NCBI RefSeq assembly: GCF_050920415.1
Contig: NZ_CP169309.1
Source: Escherichia coli
Lineage (GTDB): Bacteria; Pseudomonadota; Gammaproteobacteria; Enterobacterales; Enterobacteriaceae
DNA length: 64,000 nucleotides
Strand: one strand, 5' to 3'
Positions 50,699 through 61,440 of the stretch are shown one piece after another. The notes under the pieces were generated by a model. It made no database searches, had not been told where the DNA came from, and saw only the letters and a list, made by a program, of their open reading frames with translations. Positions within the stretch are counted from its first letter, which is position 1, and every line of letters begins with the position of its first letter. A program made the position numbers and the translations under genes.

Positions 50699-50785
50699 GC
50701 CCGGATGGTGGAATCGGTAGACACAAGGGATTTAAAATCCCTCGGCGTTCGCGCTGTGCGGGTTCAAGTCCCGCTCCGGGTACCA
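50699..50785 (+). tRNA. leuZ: tRNA-Leu (UAA)
   Basis: GCCCGGATGGTGGAATCGGTAGACACAAGGGATTTAAAATCCC...GGGTTCAAGTCCCGCTCCGGGTACCA with long variable arm. Confidence 0.9.
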
Positions 50786-50828
50786 TGGGAAAGATAAGAA
50801 TAAAATCAAAGCAATAAGCAGTGTCGTG

Positions 50829-50852
50829 AAACCACCTTCGGGTGGTTTTTTT
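50829..50852 (+). terminator. Rho-independent terminator after the tRNA cluster
   Basis: ACCACC-TTCG-GGTGG hairpin followed by TTTTTTT. Confidence 0.7.
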
Positions 50853-51325
50853 GTATTTGTATTTTGTTAAATGGCGGTAAAGTGGCGATGGTGTGGCGAT
50901 ATGCAGAAATAATGATAGTACACGTCTGTTTAAACTCTAAGGGTGAAGCAAAACTCTCCTGCAACTCATCTGCATTTCGCATATTGAACTAGGGCCTTGG
51001 TTAAACCAAAGTTTTTTCTGGGATCTTCCCACTCAACTTCATTTTTCCTCCTACCATCCACCAAAAGGTGTCTGCGCTACTCTATCTTTTTTAATCTGAC
51101 AACATCCTGAGAAAAAGACAAATTCGTTAGATTTACTGTCTTTCTGCTGCCTCGAATGCTGATGTCTGCAGCACTGATAATAACTCTATCTCTTTGATAT
51201 AGATCTTTTTTTTGATGAATTGCACGGCATATTATCGTGATGGCACCTTCTTGTTAAAGGTGTTGTACTCCTCATCTCGATTTTATGATGTGGGCTATGA
51301 TTGGTTAGTAATAGAGTGTATCGGT

Positions 51326-51607
51326 ATGCGATGTGGTTTATTAATGGCAATCTGCCTTTGTTTGGTATCTTTTAGTGGGTATGCAGCAACAGGAAAGTCA
51401 GATGCTCAGATCAAGAAAGAAATAATTAAAGAGTCCATTGAATCTTATCCAGGCAATTGTGCGTGTCCGTATAATCATGCAAGGAATGGTAGTAGATGTG
51501 GTGGACGCAGTGCATATAGCCGTACTGGAGGGTATGACGTGGTATGTTATGAAAGTGATGTTACCGATGAAATGATCCGGCAATGGAAGCAGGAGAATGC
51601 TGAGTAA
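51326..51607 (+). CDS. small Cys-rich secreted protein (possible YHYH-like domain)
   Basis: ORF 51212..51607; start taken at MRCGLLMAICLCLVSFSGYAATG (signal peptide); motif YPGNCACPYNHARNGSRCGGRSAYSRTGGYDVVCYESD. Confidence 0.45.
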   Translation: MRCGLLMAICLCLVSFSGYAATGKSDAQIKKEIIKESIESYPGNCACPYNHARNGSRCGGRSAYSRTGGYDVVCYESDVTDEMIRQWKQENAE

Positions 51608-51796
51608 TCTCTTTTAACTGATTTGTTGTGCGAGCATAATGTGCAGTTAACGGCTCACTAGCTAGTGAGAGTTCCAAAAAGAAACCCCGCAGTTTTTACG
51701 CTGCGGGGTTGTTATTCATGCCTATGAGATAGGGTGCCTTATCGGCCTTACCCTGGCAACCGATTGACGGGGAGTTGCCTCCCCGTCGCGGTTTCC

Positions 51797-51937
51797 TTAC
51801 TGCTTACACTGTAAGAACGCCGCAAACTCCGCTCCCCAGAAGCTCATCCGTATTTCACACAGCGAACCGTGCAGCATCCAGATGATGAGGATTACCGTCA
51901 CGCAGAACGTGATGGCCGTAAGCGATTTTTGCGACAT
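51797..51937 (-). CDS. Hok/Gef-family type I toxin-like small ORF (46 aa); coordinates approximate
   Basis: Hand translation MSQKSLTAITFCVTVILIIWMLHGSLCEIRMSFWGAEFAAFLQCKQ: hydrophobic helix then SLCEIR...E.AAF, resembling plasmid R1 Hok as recalled; below the 60-aa cutoff of the ORF track. Confidence 0.4.
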   Translation of the reverse strand: MSQKSLTAITFCVTVILIIWMLHGSLCEIRMSFWGAEFAAFLQCKQ

Positions 51938-52126
51938 AGCGCTTGCTCCTTTGTTGGAGAGGCGCTAACCTATCACTTGCTAGGTTGACGGGTTAGGGCC
52001 TCGGTTAAACAGAAATGTTTTCCGGGGCCTTTCCACATCCGGCCTTCGGGTATTCCCTCCGACCATCAGCCGAAAGGCACCCGCACGTAATCTATCGCTT
52101 TTTTGTTACTCCGGCAATTCTGCCTG

Positions 52127-52387
52127 TTAATTCTGAGGTAAAGGCAAACTCATCTGATTGTTTCCCCTGTGTGAAGCTGGCAGCTCATGCCACGGGATAC
52201 CTTCTGAAGAGTGAACGCCGGAGGCGTGTTTTGATGTGAATTTATGGAAAGCTTCCAGTGTTGAGAAGCATACGCCGCATTCCAGATTGTTACACTGGTA
52301 ATACTTTTGCCGCACGGTGTTTGAATCATTTTCCGGACGACTGGTGCGGATACGGGCAGATGCGCCACAAAGCGGACAACGGAACAT
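52127..52387 (-). CDS. ogr: P2 Ogr-like zinc-finger late-gene activator
   Basis: 86 aa, MFRCPLCGASARIRTSR...YYQCNNLECGVCF; next to gene D. Confidence 0.7.
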   Translation of the reverse strand: MFRCPLCGASARIRTSRPENDSNTVRQKYYQCNNLECGVCFSTLEAFHKFTSKHASGVHSSEGIPWHELPASHRGNNQMSLPLPQN

Positions 52388-52429
52388 AGCGACCTCCCTT
52401 AACGTGGTGCTGCCGCTATTCTAAGTTGC

Positions 52430-53539
52430 TCACTCTGTTTCCGCTATCCATTCCGGGATTTTTGCTTCAAGCTCAAGCTGCGTGGTAAAGCCGCTGTTAT
52501 CAATGGTGTGCTCGGCTTTTGCAATAATCCAGTCCTGATTGTCGATGTCACTTTTGAAGCCTGTCACCGTGCCATGCATTTCGGGATAGAGTTCTGCACG
52601 TCCACGCGCCAGCGTGATGGAGAATGATGCGGCTCCGCGTTGTAGTTGCTGCCACTTTGCCGCCGCTGCGCGTCTTGCTGCCTGCTCGTTCTGATAAGTC
52701 TTGCGTAACACAAACACATTGCCTTCCGCGCCTTCCATATAATCACCTTCACGGCTGCTGCTTTTCTCCTTTTTGGGTTTTGGCGGTTTACGGCGTTTTA
52801 CGCTGACTTTTTTCTTTTTCCCGTAATTAAGATCAAGCCAGTAGGCGCGTACCCCCGTATACGCCTCGCGGTCAGCAATACGGAACTGATGGCGATCGCC
52901 GCTGCTGCGTGTAATGGCGAACGAGGGCAACGGCTGGCCCTGTGCGTTCACGCCACCACCTGGCATGATGAATAACAGATTGCCGCTTTTTACCGTGGTG
53001 ATTGCGCCCAGCATTTCCGCCATGCGCGTAAGGAAGGACATGTCGCTTTCTTCGGTCTGGTCGGCGTGGTCGATTTCAATATCCATCAGCATTTCGCTGA
53101 TTTGCGGTTTCAGGCCGTATCGGTGAGCAATTGCAGACACCACGCGTTCAACGGTCACATCATGCCAGGATACTTCGCGCTTGACGTTAAATTCATCCCG
53201 AAAATCTGCGCTTCTGGCTGAAATGGTCAGTCTGTCGGGCGGTCCTTCATGAGCAATTTCATCAACAATGTAAGTGCCTTTTTCTGTCAGCGGTTCTCCT
53301 TTCCAGCCAATGAGAACCGTCAGGCGCGCGCCCCGTGGCGGTAGCTGCAACTGACCATCTGCATCATCCAGCGTGATGGTGAGCTGGTCCGCCTCAAATC
53401 CCCGGTTGTCGGTCAGTGACAGGCTCATCAGGCGCTCTGCCACGCCTGACAGCGTTTTACCCTCCGCGAGAATATCAAAATCCGGCATTTTCACGGGGTC
53501 TGTGCCCTGACTGAGCAATTGCATGGTGGTGTCGGTCAT
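52430..53539 (-). CDS. P2 gpD-like tail protein (phage late control D family)
   Basis: ORF 52430..53671; start taken at MTDTTMQLLSQGTDPVKMPDF; overall resemblance to P2 gpD as recalled. Confidence 0.75.
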   Translation of the reverse strand: MTDTTMQLLSQGTDPVKMPDFDILAEGKTLSGVAERLMSLSLTDNRGFEADQLTITLDDADGQLQLPPRGARLTVLIGWKGEPLTEKGTYIVDEIAHEGPPDRLTISARSADFRDEFNVKREVSWHDVTVERVVSAIAHRYGLKPQISEMLMDIEIDHADQTEESDMSFLTRMAEMLGAITTVKSGNLLFIMPGGGVNAQGQPLPSFAITRSSGDRHQFRIADREAYTGVRAYWLDLNYGKKKKVSVKRRKPPKPKKEKSSSREGDYMEGAEGNVFVLRKTYQNEQAARRAAAAKWQQLQRGAASFSITLARGRAELYPEMHGTVTGFKSDIDNQDWIIAKAEHTIDNSGFTTQLELEAKIPEWIAETE

Positions 53540-53696
53540 CTGTTCCCTCCCTGTGCGGCATGGTCGCATGTGCGTGCGGAGGGGGTTACTGCTTTTTGTT
53601 GTCGCCGTGGCGGGAGAACGGCGCAGGGGTGAGATTACGCGCGTGGTGGGTGATGATTGTTGCCGAATCATTTAACGGATACAAGGGGCTGAAGCT

Positions 53697-54881
53697 ATGA
53701 GTGAAACTCGTTTTCATGGTGCCCGTGTTACGGAAAATACCGACCTGGTAACAGCGATTAACGATGTTGATTCCAGCGTTATCGGTATCGTGGCAACGGC
53801 GGATGATGCGGACGCGGAGCTGTTCCCGCTGAACAAGCCCACATTGCTGACCCGCGTCAATGACGTGCTGGGAAAATGCGGAACAACGGGGACGCTTTAT
53901 CGTGCGCTTAAGGCCATCGCAGACCAGGTGAGCACAAAGGTGATCGTCGTTCGCGTGGCTGAACACAAAGAAGAAGACGGAAAAACGCAGGATCAACTGG
54001 TTATCGGTGGTTCTGAATCTGACGGCAGCTATACGGGGATGTATGCGCTGCTTGTTGCAGAGCAGGATGAAAGCATCGGATACCGTCCGCGTATTCTGGC
54101 CGCGCCGGAGCTGGACACGGAGGCGGTGACAAAATCCTTGTGCGTGATTGCGGGTAAACTGCGCGCGTTTGTGTATGCCACATGTCATGGTTGTAACACG
54201 ATGGCTGAGGCGATTACCTACCGCCAGAAATTCAACGAACGTGAGGTGATGCTCTTATGGCCTGACTTCATCGCCTACAACCCGAAAAGTGGCAAAAACG
54301 AAACGTTCCCCGCGCCTGCTTATGCGTGCGGCCTTCGTGCGTACATTGACCATGAGCAGGGCTGGCACAAATCGCTGTCCAACGTTCCGGTTAAAAATGT
54401 GCTGGGAATGTCCAGGCATGTGTTCTGGTCGTTGCAGGCCGAAGACAGTGATGCCAACAGCCTCAACAACAAAGAAATCACGACCATTATTCGTCGCAAC
54501 GGGTTCCGCTTCTGGGGCAACCGCACACCGGAAACGAACGCCTACATCTTTGAGGTGTATACCCGAACCGCACAGGTACTGGCTGATTCAATTGCGGAAG
54601 CGCAGTTTGAAACCATCGACAGTCCACTGACGCCTGCGAACGTGAAGGATGTTATCAGTGCCATCAGGGCAAAACTGGATTCACTGGTTACTGCCGGGAA
54701 ACTGATTGGCGCGTCGTGCTGGTATGACGTGGTGGATAACAGCACCACGGATTTACGTCAGGGGCGTGTGCGTATTCGCTACAAATATACGCCTGTTCCT
54801 CCGCTGGAAGATATGGAGCTTTACCAGACGTTTACTGATGAATACTTTGATCCCGCATTTGCGGTGTTGGGAGGTGTCTGA
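53697..54881 (+). CDS. P2 FI-like contractile tail sheath protein
   Basis: 394 aa; segments match P2 FI as recalled (ADDADAELFPLNKP, KLRAFVYA, DHEQGWHKSLSNV, RRNGFRFWGNRT, YTPVPPLE). Confidence 0.9.
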   Translation: MSETRFHGARVTENTDLVTAINDVDSSVIGIVATADDADAELFPLNKPTLLTRVNDVLGKCGTTGTLYRALKAIADQVSTKVIVVRVAEHKEEDGKTQDQLVIGGSESDGSYTGMYALLVAEQDESIGYRPRILAAPELDTEAVTKSLCVIAGKLRAFVYATCHGCNTMAEAITYRQKFNEREVMLLWPDFIAYNPKSGKNETFPAPAYACGLRAYIDHEQGWHKSLSNVPVKNVLGMSRHVFWSLQAEDSDANSLNNKEITTIIRRNGFRFWGNRTPETNAYIFEVYTRTAQVLADSIAEAQFETIDSPLTPANVKDVISAIRAKLDSLVTAGKLIGASCWYDVVDNSTTDLRQGRVRIRYKYTPVPPLEDMELYQTFTDEYFDPAFAVLGGV

Positions 54882-55393
54882 TGGCTGTACCAAAACATCT
54901 TCGCTTTTTTACGCTGTTTGTGAATGGTGAAAACGAAGTGGGTAAGGTGACGTCCGTCACTCCACCTAAACTGACGCGCAAAACTGAAAGCTATCGTGGC
55001 GGTGGCATGATGGGGGCGGTGAGTATCGACCTCGGTCTTGATGATTCTGCGCTTGATGCGAGTTTTGTCATGGGGGGCGCAGTTCGTGAGCTGTTCCTTA
55101 AATATGGCGGCACGATTGACAGCACGTTGCTGCGTTTTGCGGGTGAATACTACACCGATGCAGAAAGTGATCTGTATGAAATCGAGATGCGCGGGCGTGT
55201 GACGGAAATTGATATGGGGGAAGCCAAACAGGGCGAAGCCACATCACACACTTACGCTGTCAAAAACACCTACTACAAGCTGAGCGTTAACGATCGTCCG
55301 CTGTGGGAAATCGACCTGCTGAACCACATCTACCGGAAGGACGGCAAGGACATCGTGCCTGATCGCATCCGTTCCGCGCTTGGGCTTGGCTGA
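54881..55393 (+). CDS. P2 FII-like tail tube protein
   Basis: 170 aa (TPPKLTRKTESYRGGGMMGA..., ...RSALGLG). Confidence 0.85.
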   Translation: MAVPKHLRFFTLFVNGENEVGKVTSVTPPKLTRKTESYRGGGMMGAVSIDLGLDDSALDASFVMGGAVRELFLKYGGTIDSTLLRFAGEYYTDAESDLYEIEMRGRVTEIDMGEAKQGEATSHTYAVKNTYYKLSVNDRPLWEIDLLNHIYRKDGKDIVPDRIRSALGLG

Positions 55394-55449
55394 TAAGTAA
55401 TATGCAGGCGGCGCAGTGCGTCGCCTCTGACTGAAAAAGGAGACAACTG

Positions 55450-55824
55450 ATGCAAAACATCAATACTGAAACCCGGAATAACGCCGTGGCGGATGATGTG
55501 ACGGCAGGTGAGGATATGGCTGTCGAACGTGGCGTAAAACTGGCCCGACCAATTGAGCGCGGTGGCGAAAAAATCACGTATGTGGAAATTACCGGGGCTA
55601 TTGAGCAGGCTGGATCTCTGCGTGGTCTGTCGCTGTCTGATGTGCTGAATCTGAAAGCGGATACCATGTTCACGCTGTTGCCTCGCGTGACCTCGCCACG
55701 ACTGGATGAAGTGATGATTAAAAAAATGTCGTCACGCGATTTTATTCAGTTGTGCGCTGTGGCTGTAAATTTTATGAGCGAGCCAGACTCTGGCGCGAAG
55801 AGCGTGCAGGAGACGGCAGCGTAA
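55450..55824 (+). CDS. P2 gpE-like tail assembly chaperone
   Basis: 124 aa immediately upstream of the tape-measure gene; overlapped by a -1 frame ORF. Confidence 0.7.
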   Translation: MQNINTETRNNAVADDVTAGEDMAVERGVKLARPIERGGEKITYVEITGAIEQAGSLRGLSLSDVLNLKADTMFTLLPRVTSPRLDEVMIKKMSSRDFIQLCAVAVNFMSEPDSGAKSVQETAA

Positions 55825-55988
55825 TCACCCTGGTGTGCTTTGAGCACATCGAAGATCTGGTGGCGGATATTGCCGCCATTTTTAACTGGTCGCCCGCCGA
55901 AATCTTCATGATGACGCCCGGCGAAGTGGTTAGCTGGCGTGAGCGGGCGGCACTTCGCAGCGGGAATGCAGACAATGAAGACTCTTGA
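55722..55988 (+). other. gpE' extension frame: predicted -1 frameshift product E+E'
   Basis: The -1 frame is open from 55722 to 55988; candidate slippery sites are an A7 run at 55720..55726 and the heptamer A AAT TTT at 55767..55773. Confidence 0.5.
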
Positions 55989-58776
55989 TATCCGGGTCGC
56001 TTTCAGCGCCGTTGACAGACTGACCCGGCCTGCCGAAAACGCCCGCCGCCTGATGGGGCAGTTTGGTGACTCCATCCAGCGAACGCAGGGGGCGATCAAA
56101 AATCTCGAGCGTCAGGCGCGTTCATTTGAGCGCGCCCGTGACGCTGTCAGTAAAGCGGATGCGAGCATCGTGAAAGCACGACGCCAGCTTAACGCCCTTA
56201 ATCAGTTACAACGCACGGGTACAGTGCTCAGCGAAAAACAACAAAAGCTGATGCAGCAGTTAAGCACCCGGCTTGAACGCCTGAATGAATCGCGCACACG
56301 GGAAATTCAGAAAATGCGGGAGCTTGGCGGAGAGCTGAAACGCCACGGCATTTCCCTGACAGGCAGCGATAACACCATCCAGCAGGCCATCAGACGCACC
56401 GAACAGTACAACAACCAGCTTGAACGCGAACGGCAGACGCTTGCGCGTGTAACGCGGGCGCGTGAGCGGTATTCGCGCGCGCAGGAAACTGCTGGAAAAC
56501 TGAAAACAGGTGGTGCGCTGGCAATTGGTGCGGCAGCGGCTGGCGGCTATGCTGCCGGGCGTTTTTTGCAGCCTGCGATCGGGTTCGGGAAAGAGATGTC
56601 CCGCGTTCAGGCACTGACGCGAATCGACCAGAACAGCCCACAGTTTAAGGCGCTGCGTGAGCAGGCGTTAAAACTTGGCTCTGAAACGCAGTTCACCGCA
56701 GGCGATGCCGCCAGTGGACAGGCATTTCTTGCAATGGCTGGCTTCACACCGCAGGCCATTCAGGCTGCGCTTCCGGGCGTGCTGAGCATGGCAACGGCTG
56801 GCGGCATGGATCTCGGCGAGACGGCGGATATTGGCTCAAATATCCTGACGCAGTTCGGCCTTTCTGCTGACCAGATGGACCGGGTTGGTGACACACTCAC
56901 CGCAGCGTTTACCCGTACCAACACTGACCTTCGCGCACTGGGCGAAACCATGAAATATGCAGGTCCGGTGGCGGGTAAGCTGGGAATATCGCTGGAGCAG
57001 GCCGCAGCGATGGCGGGCGTGCTGGCGAATATGGGTATCAGAGGGAGTGATGCCGGGACGGCAATGCGTGCCAGCCTGGCTCGTCTGGCATCACCGCCAA
57101 AGGCAGCAGCAGAGGCGCTGAAAGAGCTTGGTGTGGCAGTTTCTGACGCGAACGGCAAAATGCGCCCGATGGAGGATGTGCTGGCCGACCTTTATAAAGC
57201 CACCCGCAAATACGGGGAAGTTGACCGGGTATCCTTCTTTAAGGACATCGCCGGGGAAGAGGCTTTCACATCATTTATGGCCCTCGTTGATGCAGCGGGT
57301 GACGGGTCCTTACCCAAACTGAGAAAAGAACTTGAAGGCGCGCGCGGTGAGGCTGAACGCACAGCAAAGGTTATGGCCAACAACCTTGACGGCGATCTGA
57401 AATCACTCGGCAGTGCATGGGAAGGGTTGCGCATCCGCATTGCAGATCTGATTGACGGTCCGCTGCGTTCTGTCACGCAGTGGCTCACGCGTGTGGTATC
57501 AAAGGTGACGGCGCTGGCGCAGGCCCATCCCGCACTGACGCGCCAGCTACTGATAGCAGGCGGTGCGTTGCTGGCAATGACTGCAACGGTTGGCTCGTTG
57601 TCGCTGGCTATTGGTGTGCTTGCTGGTCCGCTGGCAAAACTGCGTCTTGGTTTTTCCCTCCTGACCGGATCAATGAATGCTGTCAGGGTCCTGCCAGCAC
57701 TATGGGGAATGGTGACGGGTTCCGTTTCTTTGCTGGGAGGTGCTATCGGGGCGCTGTTCAGTCCGGTTGGTCTTATCGTGGCTGCGCTTGCCGGAGCTGC
57801 CATTCTTATCTGGAAATATTGGGATCCCATCAGGGCATTTTTTGCCGGGGTGTTCGGCGGGATTATGGAAAGGCTGACCCCGTTGCGCGAAACCTTTGAA
57901 CGGTTTGGCCCTGTTTTTGACGTAATCGGAAGCGGGATCAGCCAGGTGTTTAACTGGTTTAAATCGCTGCTGTCACCGATGGAGTCCAGCAAGGAAACGC
58001 TGGATAAATGTACCAGTGCTGGCGAGATATTCGGTAACGTTCTTGGCGGTGCGTTACAACTTGTTCTGACACCTGCAAAAATGTTGCTGGATACGCTGGC
58101 GTGGATACTTGAAAAGCTCGGTGTGCTTCCGGATGAAGCGGAAAGGGCGCGCAAGAAAATCGAAGACGCACAGCGTGCGGCCATTCTTCAGGACAAGGTT
58201 GCCTTGCTTCAGGGGGACCTGGCGAAAATCAATCCGCCGAAGCCTGTGGAAAATGGCACCGGAGGTGATAAACCCAAAGACAACAAACCGCTCACAGACA
58301 GCAATACCGGTACGCTACGCAGACTCAGCAAGATTGCTGATAACACAGGTAAGCTGGTTGATGAGACGAAAAAACGCATTGGCCCTGGCGATATTGTCTT
58401 TAAGAACCTGCCCCGCGCACTTGCTGTTCGTGGGGAGTGGCAGGAGCGGAAGATTGCGCAGGTCAGTAAGCCTGCTTCCGCAATCAACATCACACCTGTG
58501 GTCCCGACTCCTCTGCCTCCGGCGCTGGTCCCTGTTGTTGCGGCCAGCTCCCGCCCGGTGGCGGAGGCCATACGATCGCCAGTGGCATCAGTTCCTGCAA
58601 CTTCCCGTAACCGGGAGCCTGTTGTCTCCGGATTTGGCGGTGAAATTCATGTTCATCTGCATAACGTTGTTACGCAGAATCCCCGCGAACTGGCGAAACT
58701 GGTCGGTGAAATGGTCAGGGCAGAATTGGAACGACGCGACCGTGCCGGACGTGGCAGTTTTTACGATAAAGATTGA
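55939..58776 (+). CDS. phage tail tape-measure protein (gpT-like); start uncertain (alternative Met at 55975)
   Basis: 945 aa; Ala/Gly-rich and coiled-coil segments; between E/E' and U. Confidence 0.85.
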   Translation: MSGRHFAAGMQTMKTLDIRVAFSAVDRLTRPAENARRLMGQFGDSIQRTQGAIKNLERQARSFERARDAVSKADASIVKARRQLNALNQLQRTGTVLSEKQQKLMQQLSTRLERLNESRTREIQKMRELGGELKRHGISLTGSDNTIQQAIRRTEQYNNQLERERQTLARVTRARERYSRAQETAGKLKTGGALAIGAAAAGGYAAGRFLQPAIGFGKEMSRVQALTRIDQNSPQFKALREQALKLGSETQFTAGDAASGQAFLAMAGFTPQAIQAALPGVLSMATAGGMDLGETADIGSNILTQFGLSADQMDRVGDTLTAAFTRTNTDLRALGETMKYAGPVAGKLGISLEQAAAMAGVLANMGIRGSDAGTAMRASLARLASPPKAAAEALKELGVAVSDANGKMRPMEDVLADLYKATRKYGEVDRVSFFKDIAGEEAFTSFMALVDAAGDGSLPKLRKELEGARGEAERTAKVMANNLDGDLKSLGSAWEGLRIRIADLIDGPLRSVTQWLTRVVSKVTALAQAHPALTRQLLIAGGALLAMTATVGSLSLAIGVLAGPLAKLRLGFSLLTGSMNAVRVLPALWGMVTGSVSLLGGAIGALFSPVGLIVAALAGAAILIWKYWDPIRAFFAGVFGGIMERLTPLRETFERFGPVFDVIGSGISQVFNWFKSLLSPMESSKETLDKCTSAGEIFGNVLGGALQLVLTPAKMLLDTLAWILEKLGVLPDEAERARKKIEDAQRAAILQDKVALLQGDLAKINPPKPVENGTGGDKPKDNKPLTDSNTGTLRRLSKIADNTGKLVDETKKRIGPGDIVFKNLPRALAVRGEWQERKIAQVSKPASAINITPVVPTPLPPALVPVVAASSRPVAEAIRSPVASVPATSRNREPVVSGFGGEIHVHLHNVVTQNPRELAKLVGEMVRAELERRDRAGRGSFYDKD

Positions 58777-58782
58777 GGAGTC

Positions 58783-59277
58783 ATGGCCATGATGATGATC
58801 TACGGCATGTTTGTTTTTGAGCTGCGCACATTGCCGCATCAGCAGTTACAGCAAAACAAAAGCTGGCGGCATGTGAAAAATGAACGCGTTAACCGTTCAG
58901 CAAGCTGGCAGTATATCGGGGCAGGCGATGATCGCATCGTTCTTTCTGGTGTGCTTTATCCTGAAATTACAGGTGGCGAAGTATCGCTTTCGTTGCTGAC
59001 CACGCAGGCATATACAGGACGCCCCTGGCCTCTGATTGATGGTGTCGGGCAGATTTACGGCATGTATGTCCTGACCGGAACGAATACGACCCGCTCCGAG
59101 TTTGATCGCTACGGTAAGGCGAAAAAGATAGAATTTTCACTGACCCTTGAACGCTGTGATGAGGATTTGCGGGAGCGCCTGCAATCCTCATCGTTCAGCG
59201 ATATGCTGTCCGGCTTCAAAGATAAGGTCACATCATCCCTTAACAGCGCGGCCAGCTCCGTTAAAGGGCTGTTTTGA
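58783..59277 (+). CDS. P2 gpU-like tail protein
   Basis: 164 aa (MAMMMIYGMFVFELRTLPHQQLQQNKSWRH...PLIDGVGQIYG). Confidence 0.8.
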   Translation: MAMMMIYGMFVFELRTLPHQQLQQNKSWRHVKNERVNRSASWQYIGAGDDRIVLSGVLYPEITGGEVSLSLLTTQAYTGRPWPLIDGVGQIYGMYVLTGTNTTRSEFDRYGKAKKIEFSLTLERCDEDLRERLQSSSFSDMLSGFKDKVTSSLNSAASSVKGLF

Positions 59278-59284
59278 TTAACGC

Positions 59285-59314
59285 AAAACCGCTAATGGTC
59301 AGATTAGCGGTTTT
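59285..59314. terminator. bidirectional hairpin terminator between gpU and the convergent invertase gene
   Basis: Perfect 12-bp inverted repeat AAAACCGCTAAT-GGTCAG-ATTAGCGGTTTT overlapping the invertase stop codon. Confidence 0.55.
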
Positions 59315-59903
59315 CATTTTCCTGAGTCTGCCTGGTTGTTTCTTCAGCCTGTATATCGCCTACAGGGTGATAACGATAAATCGTCGATATGCCGATGTCG
59401 TAAATGATCGCCAGTTGTTTCCTGTCATGACCGTTTTTAATCAGCCTCGCTATTTGCTCGTGTTGTTCTTTTGTCAACTTCGGGCGACGTCCGCCAATGC
59501 GCCCCCGTGCGCGCGCTGCCGCCAGCCCGGCCAGTGTACGCTCTACAATTAATTCACGTTCCATTTCGGCTAAAGCCCCCATGACGTGAAAAAAGAAACG
59601 CCCCATGGGTGTTGATGTGTCAATGCTGTCCGTCAGACTACGGAAATTAACACCTTTTTCCCGCAATTCCTCAATAAGCGTGATCAGGTGTTTCATACTT
59701 CTGCCCAGTCTGTCCAGCTTCCAGACAACCAGCGTATCTCCTTCTGATAGCGTTCTGATCAGTTTTTTCAATCCCGGTCTGGCTGATTTCGTTCCGCTGA
59801 TTTTATCTTCAAAAATCAGTTCACATCCTGCGCACTCCAGCGCGTTACGCTGCAATTCTGTATTCTGGTCATTTGTTGATACGCGGACATAGCCAATAAG
59901 CAT
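59304..59903 (-). CDS. serine site-specific DNA invertase (Gin/Pin/Hin family)
   Basis: 199 aa, MLIGYVRVSTNDQNTELQRNAL... (catalytic Ser region), C-terminal HTH. Confidence 0.9.
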   Translation of the reverse strand: MLIGYVRVSTNDQNTELQRNALECAGCELIFEDKISGTKSARPGLKKLIRTLSEGDTLVVWKLDRLGRSMKHLITLIEELREKGVNFRSLTDSIDTSTPMGRFFFHVMGALAEMERELIVERTLAGLAAARARGRIGGRRPKLTKEQHEQIARLIKNGHDRKQLAIIYDIGISTIYRYHPVGDIQAEETTRQTQENENR

Positions 59904-59960
59904 GATGGATCCCCTGAATAAAAACCGGGGATGATGCCAGTTAGCCGTAATCTCTGCATT

Positions 59961-59986
59961 TTCTTAAACGTTGGTTTGGGAGAAGG
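59961..59986. repeat. invertase crossover site (left), inside the alternative tail-fibre 3' segment; approximate
   Basis: TTCTTAAACGTTGGTTTGGGAGAAGG; a related copy lies in inverted orientation within gene H. Confidence 0.5.
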
Positions 59987-60440
59987 TGCTCCAGCTATTG
60001 GCGTTCCGTTCTTCTGGCCGTCCGCCGCAATGCCAGATACCGTAATCGAAAGCTGGTCCGGCATGGTGTTTTTGAAGTTCAACGGCGCGAAATTCTCTGC
60101 CACTGATTACCCTGTGCTGGCGAAAGTGTTTCCTTCGCTGGTATTACCTGAAGCCCGCGGTGATTTCATTCGTATCTGGGATGATGGCCGTGGTGTTGAT
60201 AGTGGCCGTGCGTTACTTTCCGCGCAATCAGACGATTTCAAAACGCACGAGCATAAAATTTTAGGGCTAAATGGAAGTGGCAGTAATGTAGTGTTTGGCA
60301 CCGTTTCGAATGCTTCTCCATTATATACCAGCGGCGTTAGTCAGCCGGGTGGAAGTGCTTTGCCCGCTTTTCAAAACCCAGGCGGTACTGAAACGCGTCC
60401 CCGTAACATCGCATTCAACTTTTTAGTAAGGGCTAAATAA
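59961..60440 (+). other. alternative tail-fibre C-terminal segment (Hv'), currently not fused to H
   Basis: Part of ORF 59931..60440; no separate start expected; would be joined to the constant part of H after inversion. Confidence 0.55.
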
Positions 60441-61033
60441 TGAAACCTGTTTTTGATGAAAATGGACTGGCTACAGTGCCGGGTGATATGCGTTGTTTTT
60501 ATTATGATGCAGTAACGTATGAATATACGGGCTGGTCTGATGAATATATTAATACTGGTATAAGTATGCCCGCCTGTTCCACTGGTATTGACCCTGGCGA
60601 AAACATTCCGGGAAAAGTGGCTGTATTTACAGGTAAGGGATGGAGCCATGAAGAGGACCATCGCAATGAGACTGTTTACTCAATCGAAAATGGCGCAGCT
60701 GTTACAGTGGATTATATCGGTGCCATCAAAAACGGTTATGTCACGCTTTCACCGTTAACGCCATATGATAAATGGGATGGTGAGAAATGGGTGACAGATA
60801 CTGAGGCACAACACGGTGCCGCAGTAGAAGCGGCAGAAGCACAGCGTCAGCCACTGATTGATGCTGCAATGGCTTCCATCAGTCTGATTCAGCTGAAATT
60901 ACAGGCCGGGCGGAAGCTGACGCAGGCAGAAACCACCCGGCTTAACGCCGTGCTTGATTACATTGACGCGGTGACGGCAACAGATACGAGCACCGCTCCG
61001 GATGTCATCTGGCCTGAACTGCCGGAGGCGTAG
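60440..61033 (+). CDS. tail fibre assembly protein (alternative copy, tfa')
   Basis: 197 aa; C-terminal region ...TTRLNAVLDYIDAVTATDTSTAPDVIWPELP. Confidence 0.75.
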   Translation: MKPVFDENGLATVPGDMRCFYYDAVTYEYTGWSDEYINTGISMPACSTGIDPGENIPGKVAVFTGKGWSHEEDHRNETVYSIENGAAVTVDYIGAIKNGYVTLSPLTPYDKWDGEKWVTDTEAQHGAAVEAAEAQRQPLIDAAMASISLIQLKLQAGRKLTQAETTRLNAVLDYIDAVTATDTSTAPDVIWPELPEA

Positions 61034-61439
61034 GCCATTCAATATCTGGAGCACTGGAGGTATCAACCAGTTCCAGTGCGTCCAGATAATCCAGCCACAA
61101 ATTATATTGCGCCAGTTCCTCACCTTTCAGACGACCAATAGCCGCTTTACCAGGCCATTGCTTGGTATTCATATATTCGTTGGACTGATTAATCAATTGC
61201 TGTTTTTTCAATTCGGCTGCGGCAATCTGTTCCTCATGTGTTGGTGGTGGAATTTCAGACCATGCAGGAAAACCATTTTCCTCAGCGATACGGATTTTTC
61301 CTTTCGGCGGTAATCCGGAAAACTCAATATACACCTGCTCATCAACTTCAACAGCATCATCTGGCCATGAATTTACATTGATGTAGTCATCCTTAAGCGC
61401 AGGATTCACAAAAATATTTAAAGATGGACTAAAAAACAC
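61005..61439 (-). CDS. tail fibre assembly protein (active orientation)
   Basis: 144 aa; C-terminal ...NLWLDYLDALELVDTSSAPDIEWPTPP; convergent with and overlapping tfa'. Confidence 0.75.
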   Translation of the reverse strand: MFFSPSLNIFVNPALKDDYINVNSWPDDAVEVDEQVYIEFSGLPPKGKIRIAEENGFPAWSEIPPPTHEEQIAAAELKKQQLINQSNEYMNTKQWPGKAAIGRLKGEELAQYNLWLDYLDALELVDTSSAPDIEWPTPPAVQAR

Positions 61440-61440
61440 A

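Follow-up and report, generated by a model that had tools for sequence, protein, structure and literature searches.

P2-like phages carry accessory (lysogenic-conversion) genes, among them old, tin and Z/fun. Their known defence hotspot lies between gpA and gpQ (Rousset et al. 2022, PMC9122126). The gene studied here, a 93-codon frame called ORF93, shares with the P2-like accessory genes its non-essential character, a variable slot, an atypical base composition and absence from sister phages. It differs from them in place, its slot running from attP to hok/ogr and the published P2 hotspot from gpA to gpQ (PMC9122126), and in product, which is a small predicted-exported protein rather than a cytoplasmic nuclease or ATPase. 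The phages P88, P88_4B11 and Chuche share a hok-ogr-D-tail end that is 95–97% identical to that of the prophage described here, whereas they hold other cargo between int/attP and hok, lack ORF93 and, in the region compared, lack the leuZ att.

Three described protein groups can be set beside the product. phrog_27544 is the same prophage protein family as ORF93, matched at full length (E 1.5e-59, residues 13–93 against profile positions 1–81 of 81), and this PHROG carries no function; it covers the phage-borne subset alone, whereas the wider family of 2,308 clusters adds plasmid, chromosomal and multidomain members. Excalibur (PF05901), an extracellular Ca2+-binding domain, and the ORF93 domain are both small cysteine-containing extracytoplasmic modules, and each is met either as a stand-alone domain following a signal peptide or on the C-terminal side of secreted nucleases of the SNase and DUF1524/GmrSD_C kinds. 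The analogy is one of architecture only, with no sequence or profile similarity in Pfam or hhalign comparisons; the Excalibur loop DxDxDGxxCE is absent in ORF93, where the loop reads N-x-A/D-R-N/A-G-S/R-x-C-G and is not acidic. YHYH-domain proteins, like ORF93, are short and exported with a compact conserved C-terminal motif, but the conserved residues of ORF93 are Cys, Arg, Ser, Gly and Tyr, without a His-rich motif.

We analysed a stretch of 64,000 nucleotides from an Escherichia coli genome (contig NZ_CP169309.1), referred to throughout as the window. ORF93 occupies positions 51326–51607 on the plus strand, with an ATG at 51326 and a TAA ending at 51607, and its product reads MRCGLLMAICLCLVSFSGYAATGKSDAQIKKEIIKESIESYPGNCACPYNHARNGSRCGGRSAYSRTGGYDVVCYESDVTDEMIRQWKQENAE. 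An earlier note on this DNA had proposed a 93-residue frame with the motifs CACPY and RCGGRSAY. This was borne out by reading the ORF, where the motifs appear as C45-A-C47-P-Y and R57-C58-G-G-R-S-A-Y64, and by PGAP, which calls the identical frame in 99.6%-identical genomes as WP_071529678.1 (hypothetical protein). Some gene finders begin the gene 37 codons further upstream, which yields a protein of 130 aa. This N-terminal extension is missing in the Salmonella orthologue and in all distant homologues, where a leader of roughly 20–25 residues passes directly into the conserved domain; we therefore preferred the 93-aa start and dropped the 130-aa one.

The signal peptide was called by rule from the sequence (−3/−1). 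The leader has a basic n-region and a hydrophobic core of 14 residues; G-Y-A, with small residues at −3 and −1, precedes the predicted cleavage point, after which the mature protein would begin with ATGK. A lipoprotein reading was rejected, as the leader is without a lipobox. Across the family, a hydrophobic leader stands ahead of the domain in 215 of 273 scored proteins. With this rule-based leader and four invariant cysteines, the earlier description of a small Cys-containing protein with a signal-peptide-like start holds.

ORF93 is a real, conserved gene. A word-indexed homology search returned 260 homologous proteins at E-values from 1e-22 to 1e-57, the distant ones at 50–60% identity (1e-22 to 1e-29). 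A family profile run against 1.84 billion representatives gave 2,308 matches at E≤1e-3, 1,474 of which reach E≤1e-10, each match being the representative of a 50%-identity cluster. Thirteen positions are invariant in an alignment of 62 diverse sequences (S37, Y41, C45, C47, P48, G55, C58, G59, R61, S62, A63, G69 and C74). The window allele differs from that of O26/O157 by seven synonymous and two non-synonymous changes (dS 0.133, dN 0.009), so that dN/dS between E. coli alleles is about 0.07; the gene is under purifying selection. It was found in 575 of 5,426 complete E. coli genomes, and the STEC lineages that carry it include O157:H7, O26, O145, O121 and O103.

These results bear directly on whether ORF93 might be no gene at all, and instead a chance open frame in an AT-rich attP arm. 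Its low GC, its weak Shine-Dalgarno (GAG) and the failure to find a consensus sigma-70 site upstream of it on the plus strand would all suit such a frame. Conservation refutes that reading, to which we give practically no probability: it is contradicted by the thousands of homologues with their 13 invariant positions, by the dN/dS ratio, by the GAGG Shine-Dalgarno of the Salmonella orthologue (68% identity) and by a confident AF2 model.

The genes upstream of the prophage are uvrC and pgsA, followed by the tRNA cluster glyW-cysT-leuZ, which leuZ ends. In the K-12 annotation the order continues from leuZ to the 3'ETS-leuZ sRNA and then yecA. Homology between the window and K-12 (blastn) ends at 50854, which is also the end of a 125-bp direct repeat (Table 1) composed of the 3' 56 nt of leuZ and the entire 3'ETS-leuZ, including its terminator at 50828–50849. 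The repeat occurs again in E. coli 95-3192 (L005, 21106–21230), at 100% identity and directly before yecA, and in E. coli O6:H16 (L025, 29190–29311), at 96.8% identity and directly after a phage integrase gene (int, 28082–29083). No further att-like copy was found at 50860–64000 of the window. Because attL ends at 50854 and a second att follows the integrase, ORF93 is the first prophage gene and not a host islet. The comparison places it within the two attachment sites, as the first gene after attL, and corrects the position proposed earlier, between the tRNA genes and the prophage. The prophage is laid out as attL, ORF93, hok/sok, ogr, D and tail genes, continuing to int and attR; the order in the circular phage would be int - attP - ORF93 - hok/sok - ogr - D.

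Two further observations concern this integration site. The att repeat is unusually long at 125 bp and holds the whole 3'ETS-leuZ sRNA sponge together with its terminator, so lysogens have a second copy of 3'ETS-leuZ at attR, separated from the tRNA operon. In the O6:H16 genome, the leuZ site contains, beyond the prophage attR, another integrative element in tandem (L025, 29489–33635), whose arm-type integrase is interrupted by an IS21-family element.

Table 1. Features of the leuZ end of the prophage, in window coordinates
Feature	Coordinates	Strand	Evidence
tRNA-Leu(UAA) leuZ	50699..50785	+	ARAGORN, Rfam tRNA, K-12 annotation
attL copy of the 125-bp direct repeat	50730..50854		blastn against K-12; recurrence of the repeat in relatives
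Low-GC (37–39%) non-coding spacer, from att core to ORF93	50855..51325		Composition profile
Predicted Sec signal peptide of ORF93	51326..51388	+	Residues 1–21, MRCGLLMAICLCLVSFSGYA; predicted cut after A21, −3/−1 rule
Mature domain of ORF93 (about 70–72 aa) and stop codon	51389..51607	+	Alignments, AF2 model, core charge
Bidirectional intrinsic terminator	51683..51710	both	Terminator scan; GC-rich hairpin
hok/sok toxin-antitoxin locus	51797..52082	-	PGAP Hok/Gef in relatives; Rfam RF01794
ogr/Delta-like zinc-finger late activator	52127..52387	-	ORF list; PGAP in a relative (L001)
Phage late control gene D (tail protein)	52430..53539	-	PGAP in L001, transferred to window coordinates

GC content is 37–41% over 50850–51600, which covers ORF93 and the spacer upstream of it, against 50–55% on both sides. 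The spacer presumably holds a putative attP arm and a putative ORF93 promoter. No Ogr-type TGT-N12-ACA dyad was found upstream of ORF93 in the prophage part, and the total number of such dyads in the window is at chance level. Downstream, one terminator is common to the convergent ORF93 and hok transcripts. The hok-like neighbour reported earlier was confirmed, with the coding sequence at 51797–51937 (minus strand) assigned to the Hok/Gef family by PGAP and the sok/5' hok mRNA region at 51927–52082, where the Rfam sok model RF01794 scores 47.3 bits, under its gathering score of 59. The same hok is labelled 'MokW-like host killing' in P88-like phages. The hok/sok locus is a neighbouring cargo or stability module.

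Beyond hok/sok, the core of the P2-like prophage opens with the ogr/Delta-like gene, and after D the region continues from 53697 with genes for the tail sheath, tube and tape measure. The mechanical ORF of gene D (52430–53671, minus strand) would encode 413 aa, against 369 aa in the PGAP annotation of relatives (52430–53539); the upstream ATG is probably not used. In the O26:H11 strain 11368, a gene for a 379-aa 'YecA family protein' lies between ogr and D (L003, 6475–7614), and the ogr-D junction of the O26 prophage is another variable point of the same prophage end.

We compared the slot occupied by ORF93 across related phages and genomes. Homology with the P88-like phages (Xuanwuvirus, Peduoviridae) begins at 51674 for Chuche and at 51725 for P88_4B11, and extends rightwards over hok, ogr and D. 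Between int/attP and hok, Chuche carries Com and a DNA methyltransferase and P88_4B11 five hypothetical genes, in both cases without ORF93. In JJ1886, where a prophage of this type is integrated downstream of serS, nothing fills the slot; in strain E272, where the prophage is at flk, the slot is taken up by TagO-like and zinc-ribbon genes. Across the 5,426 complete E. coli genomes, the hok-ogr-D end is present in 900, and in 313 genomes it is joined to ORF93 and the leuZ att. Because near-identical hok-ogr-D ends (about 96%) occur without ORF93, its GC is atypical and the slot is variable, ORF93 is dispensable accessory cargo. As optional cargo of a P2-like prophage it fills a low-GC slot whose content varies, in agreement with the cargo role suggested in the earlier note, and it shows three of the features by which a moron is recognised: a location inside att, a dispensable, variable slot and an atypical base composition. 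That note had held that its proposal would fail if the frame lacked conservation or was missing from close relatives with the same prophage. The frame is strongly conserved; at the same time, many close relatives of this prophage lack it, as one would expect of an accessory gene.

Searching 50,697 isolated-phage records returned none with the ORF93 protein, and the phage evidence comes from prophages alone, many of them decayed. In IMG/VR prophage contigs, the gene usually lies 0.5–1.6 kb from a contig end or beside an integrase; one contig (L056) holds two family copies (3379–3675 and 5001–5201) about 1.3 kb apart, so duplication within one element is possible. ORF93 is retained in lineages whose surrounding prophage has decayed. 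In O157:H7 (L002, 5565–6975), IS30 stands in place of hok, ogr and most of D, and ORF93 is kept; in 95-3192 (L005, 7888–20758), the tape-measure gene is truncated by IS3, and a type I R-M / DUF262 island lies within the same att pair. The Salmonella enterica orthologue occupies the same leuZ position and is accompanied by two hok loci. In two Salmonella contexts (L011, 5600–7300; L014, 5724–7452), the orthologue, a sok remnant and the two hok loci form a single cassette. The L014 cassette adjoins an att-like copy (89.6% identity to window 50729–50833) and lies between tail-fibre genes, surroundings that look like tandem prophages.

We next consider the protein family. The domain search that the earlier note called for found no Pfam or NCBIfam model: ORF93 gave a single sub-threshold match to Sclerostin (E 0.0058) among 24,736 Pfam models and no match at E≤10 among 18,950 NCBIfam models, and Pfam models likewise gave no match on 65 family domain sequences. 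No family of the PADLOC-DB v2 defence HMMs matched at E≤1. Apart from the full-length match to phrog_27544, two weak PHROG matches, phrog_14503 ('membrane associated protein') and phrog_3117, involve the core motif only. Every family member is named 'hypothetical protein' in its source, and a literature search on the protein, its motifs and the leuZ P2-like prophage found nothing relevant.

The family is found mostly in Proteobacteria. It is present in 116 plasmid records (Xanthomonas, Pantoea, Rhizobium, Brucella, Klebsiella, and ColN plasmids of E. coli and Shigella), and some of the carriers are conjugative Xanthomonas plasmids or small ColN plasmids. The ColN paralogue is 100 aa long, has 49% identity to ORF93 (L006, 775–1077 in E. 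coli; L007, 466–768 in Shigella sonnei) and sits in a four-gene block with an Exc2 family lipoprotein and two proteins without a Pfam domain. This block faces the cna-cni-lysis genes. Chromosomal and metagenomic contexts are mixed and often resemble mobile elements (relaxase, P4 cII, holins). No recurring neighbour gene was found across the family contexts, and Pfam gave no match on ten neighbour genes from the ColN, Xanthomonas, Pseudomonas and metagenome contexts.

Short flanks, consistent with a signal peptide and a single domain, were seen in 209 of 280 distinct domain instances, and tandem duplications of the domain exist. Fusion partners were counted among the 46 long family members: SH3_3 in 14, SH3_4 in 8, SNase and PG_binding_1 in 3 each, and TonB_C and GmrSD_C in 1 each. 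Two family members (P0159 and P0290) have an SNase domain followed C-terminally by the family domain, and a further protein (P0217) contains an Excalibur-like motif together with it. All the fusion partners are extracytoplasmic, being either cell-wall-targeting modules or secreted nucleases.

Structure prediction, also suggested in the earlier note, yielded a confident model of the mature domain. Using 65 domain sequences, AF2 modelled the mature 70 residues with a mean pLDDT of 92.6 and a pTM of 0.77; for full-length ORF93 the pLDDT was 83. The predicted fold has an N-terminal helix, a loop-rich core with the four cysteines and one short beta-bridge, and a C-terminal helix. Along the sequence, this corresponds to an amphipathic helix, then a Cys-rich cationic core (C45, C47, C58 and C74; CG-x-RSAYS-[RK]-x-GG), then the C-terminal helix. 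No structural neighbour of the mature-domain model was found in the PDB, and a sequence-profile search of the PDB gave one chance match (E 1.5). The four cysteines, invariant in alignments of both 62 and 65 sequences, most likely form two disulfides; alternatively, they may make up a Cys4 metal site. Family-wide, the core has a median net charge of +4; R61 is present in 92% of sequences, and position 66 is R or K in 98%. In E. coli the mature protein as a whole is slightly acidic (pI 5.8), although the charge of its core is +3.

Taken together, we consider it probable that a P2/P88-like (Peduoviridae) prophage, inserted in the leuZ 3' end, carries ORF93 as an accessory gene (a moron, for lysogenic conversion) that encodes a predicted Sec-exported, disulfide-bonded envelope binding module. 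Judging from the sequence, the 21-residue leader would route the protein through Sec, and the domain of about 8 kDa left after cleavage would fold in the periplasm with its four cysteines paired as two disulfides. The domain would be a self-contained extracytoplasmic module, which elsewhere is attached to SH3_3, SH3_4, PG_binding_1, TonB_C, SNase or GmrSD_C. Its cationic loop, CG-x-R-S-A-Y-S-R/K, may bind a conserved anionic polymer of the envelope or the extracellular space, for example peptidoglycan or nucleic acid. The stand-alone module, expressed from the prophage, might then alter an envelope property of the lysogen, a step that is speculative. The family architecture and the cationic loop together suggest anionic-polymer binding. 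We think a fast-evolving protein less likely as the partner: with conservation this high among distant proteobacteria, a ligand that is invariant, or conserved and not a protein, is a better fit than the protein target of an arms race. The domain could also be an effector and not a binder, as its fusion partners are themselves binding modules. A broader proposal, which we regard as possible and put forward tentatively, is that ORF93 represents an undescribed extracytoplasmic family, a polymer-binding four-Cys module of at least 2,300 clusters that occurs stand-alone or fused, travels on phages and plasmids as a cassette of one gene and may confer an envelope phenotype such as DNA exclusion or wall protection.

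Other readings give the exported protein a more specific task. It could be a periplasmic superinfection-exclusion or anti-invader factor acting against phage DNA, conjugative DNA or colicins. The Com/methylase pair in the slot of a sister phage would fit this, as would the placement of the 49%-identical paralogue next to an Exc2 entry-exclusion lipoprotein on ColN plasmids, the presence of the family on conjugative and mobilisable plasmids and the fusion of some members to nucleases. Defence cargo is known in P2-like phages, though at the gpA-gpQ hotspot (PMC9122126), which is a different locus. Against an exclusion role, no PADLOC model matches, an identity of 50–60% among Enterobacteriaceae, Xanthomonas and Pseudomonas is unusual for an arms-race protein, and many of the copies either carry a fused SH3 or PG-binding domain or lie in ordinary chromosomal contexts; we judge this role unlikely, while giving it more weight than the remaining readings. 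Slightly less likely again is that the domain is a Ca2+- or Zn2+-binding accessory domain, a functional analogue of Excalibur that would, when alone, buffer metal in the periplasm or carry a cofactor. Like Excalibur, the domain does follow secreted SNase and GmrSD_C nucleases on their C-terminal side, one protein (P0217) joins an Excalibur-like motif to it, and its four invariant cysteines include a CxC pair. Yet the Excalibur HMM gives no match and hhalign against the Excalibur sequence returns a probability of 0.1; the acidic DxDxDG loop is missing from a core that is cationic, and an even number of cysteines in an exported proteobacterial protein favours disulfides.

The neighbourhood of ORF93 raises a further possibility, that it is a functional partner of hok/sok within a joint cassette. 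The two genes are convergent on a common terminator, and the Salmonella ORF occurs together with two hok loci in two prophage contexts (L011 and L014). The association breaks down in both directions, however, with hok present without ORF93 in P88-like phages and in the serS and flk prophages, ORF93 kept in O157:H7 after IS30 removed hok, and plasmid and Pseudomonas family members without hok nearby, which makes a partnership improbable. Least credible among the readings of the exported protein is a small metal-binding secreted protein of the YHYH type, the resemblance that the earlier note had pointed out. The likeness is superficial, consisting of small size, export and a conserved Cys/Gly-rich motif. 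None of the 65 family domains matches the YHYH model at E≤1, and neither Pfam nor NCBIfam gives a YHYH match to ORF93 at E≤10; the mature protein has no YHYH string and a single His (H51), which is not conserved. We hold this identity to be very improbable, and retain the envelope binding module as the preferred reading.

On present evidence, ORF93 is a conserved hypothetical moron and not a new kind of system. About 1 in 10 complete E. coli genomes carries it. The domain itself occurs very widely and is better conserved than is usual for small secreted proteins, yet it has neither a Pfam nor an NCBIfam model and no solved relative. Once defined, the ligand of the domain would annotate thousands of 'hypothetical proteins' and would also make sense of a domain that repeatedly accompanies SH3, PG-binding and SNase domains. 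Knowing the ligand could further show the selective benefit of this prophage and plasmid cargo.
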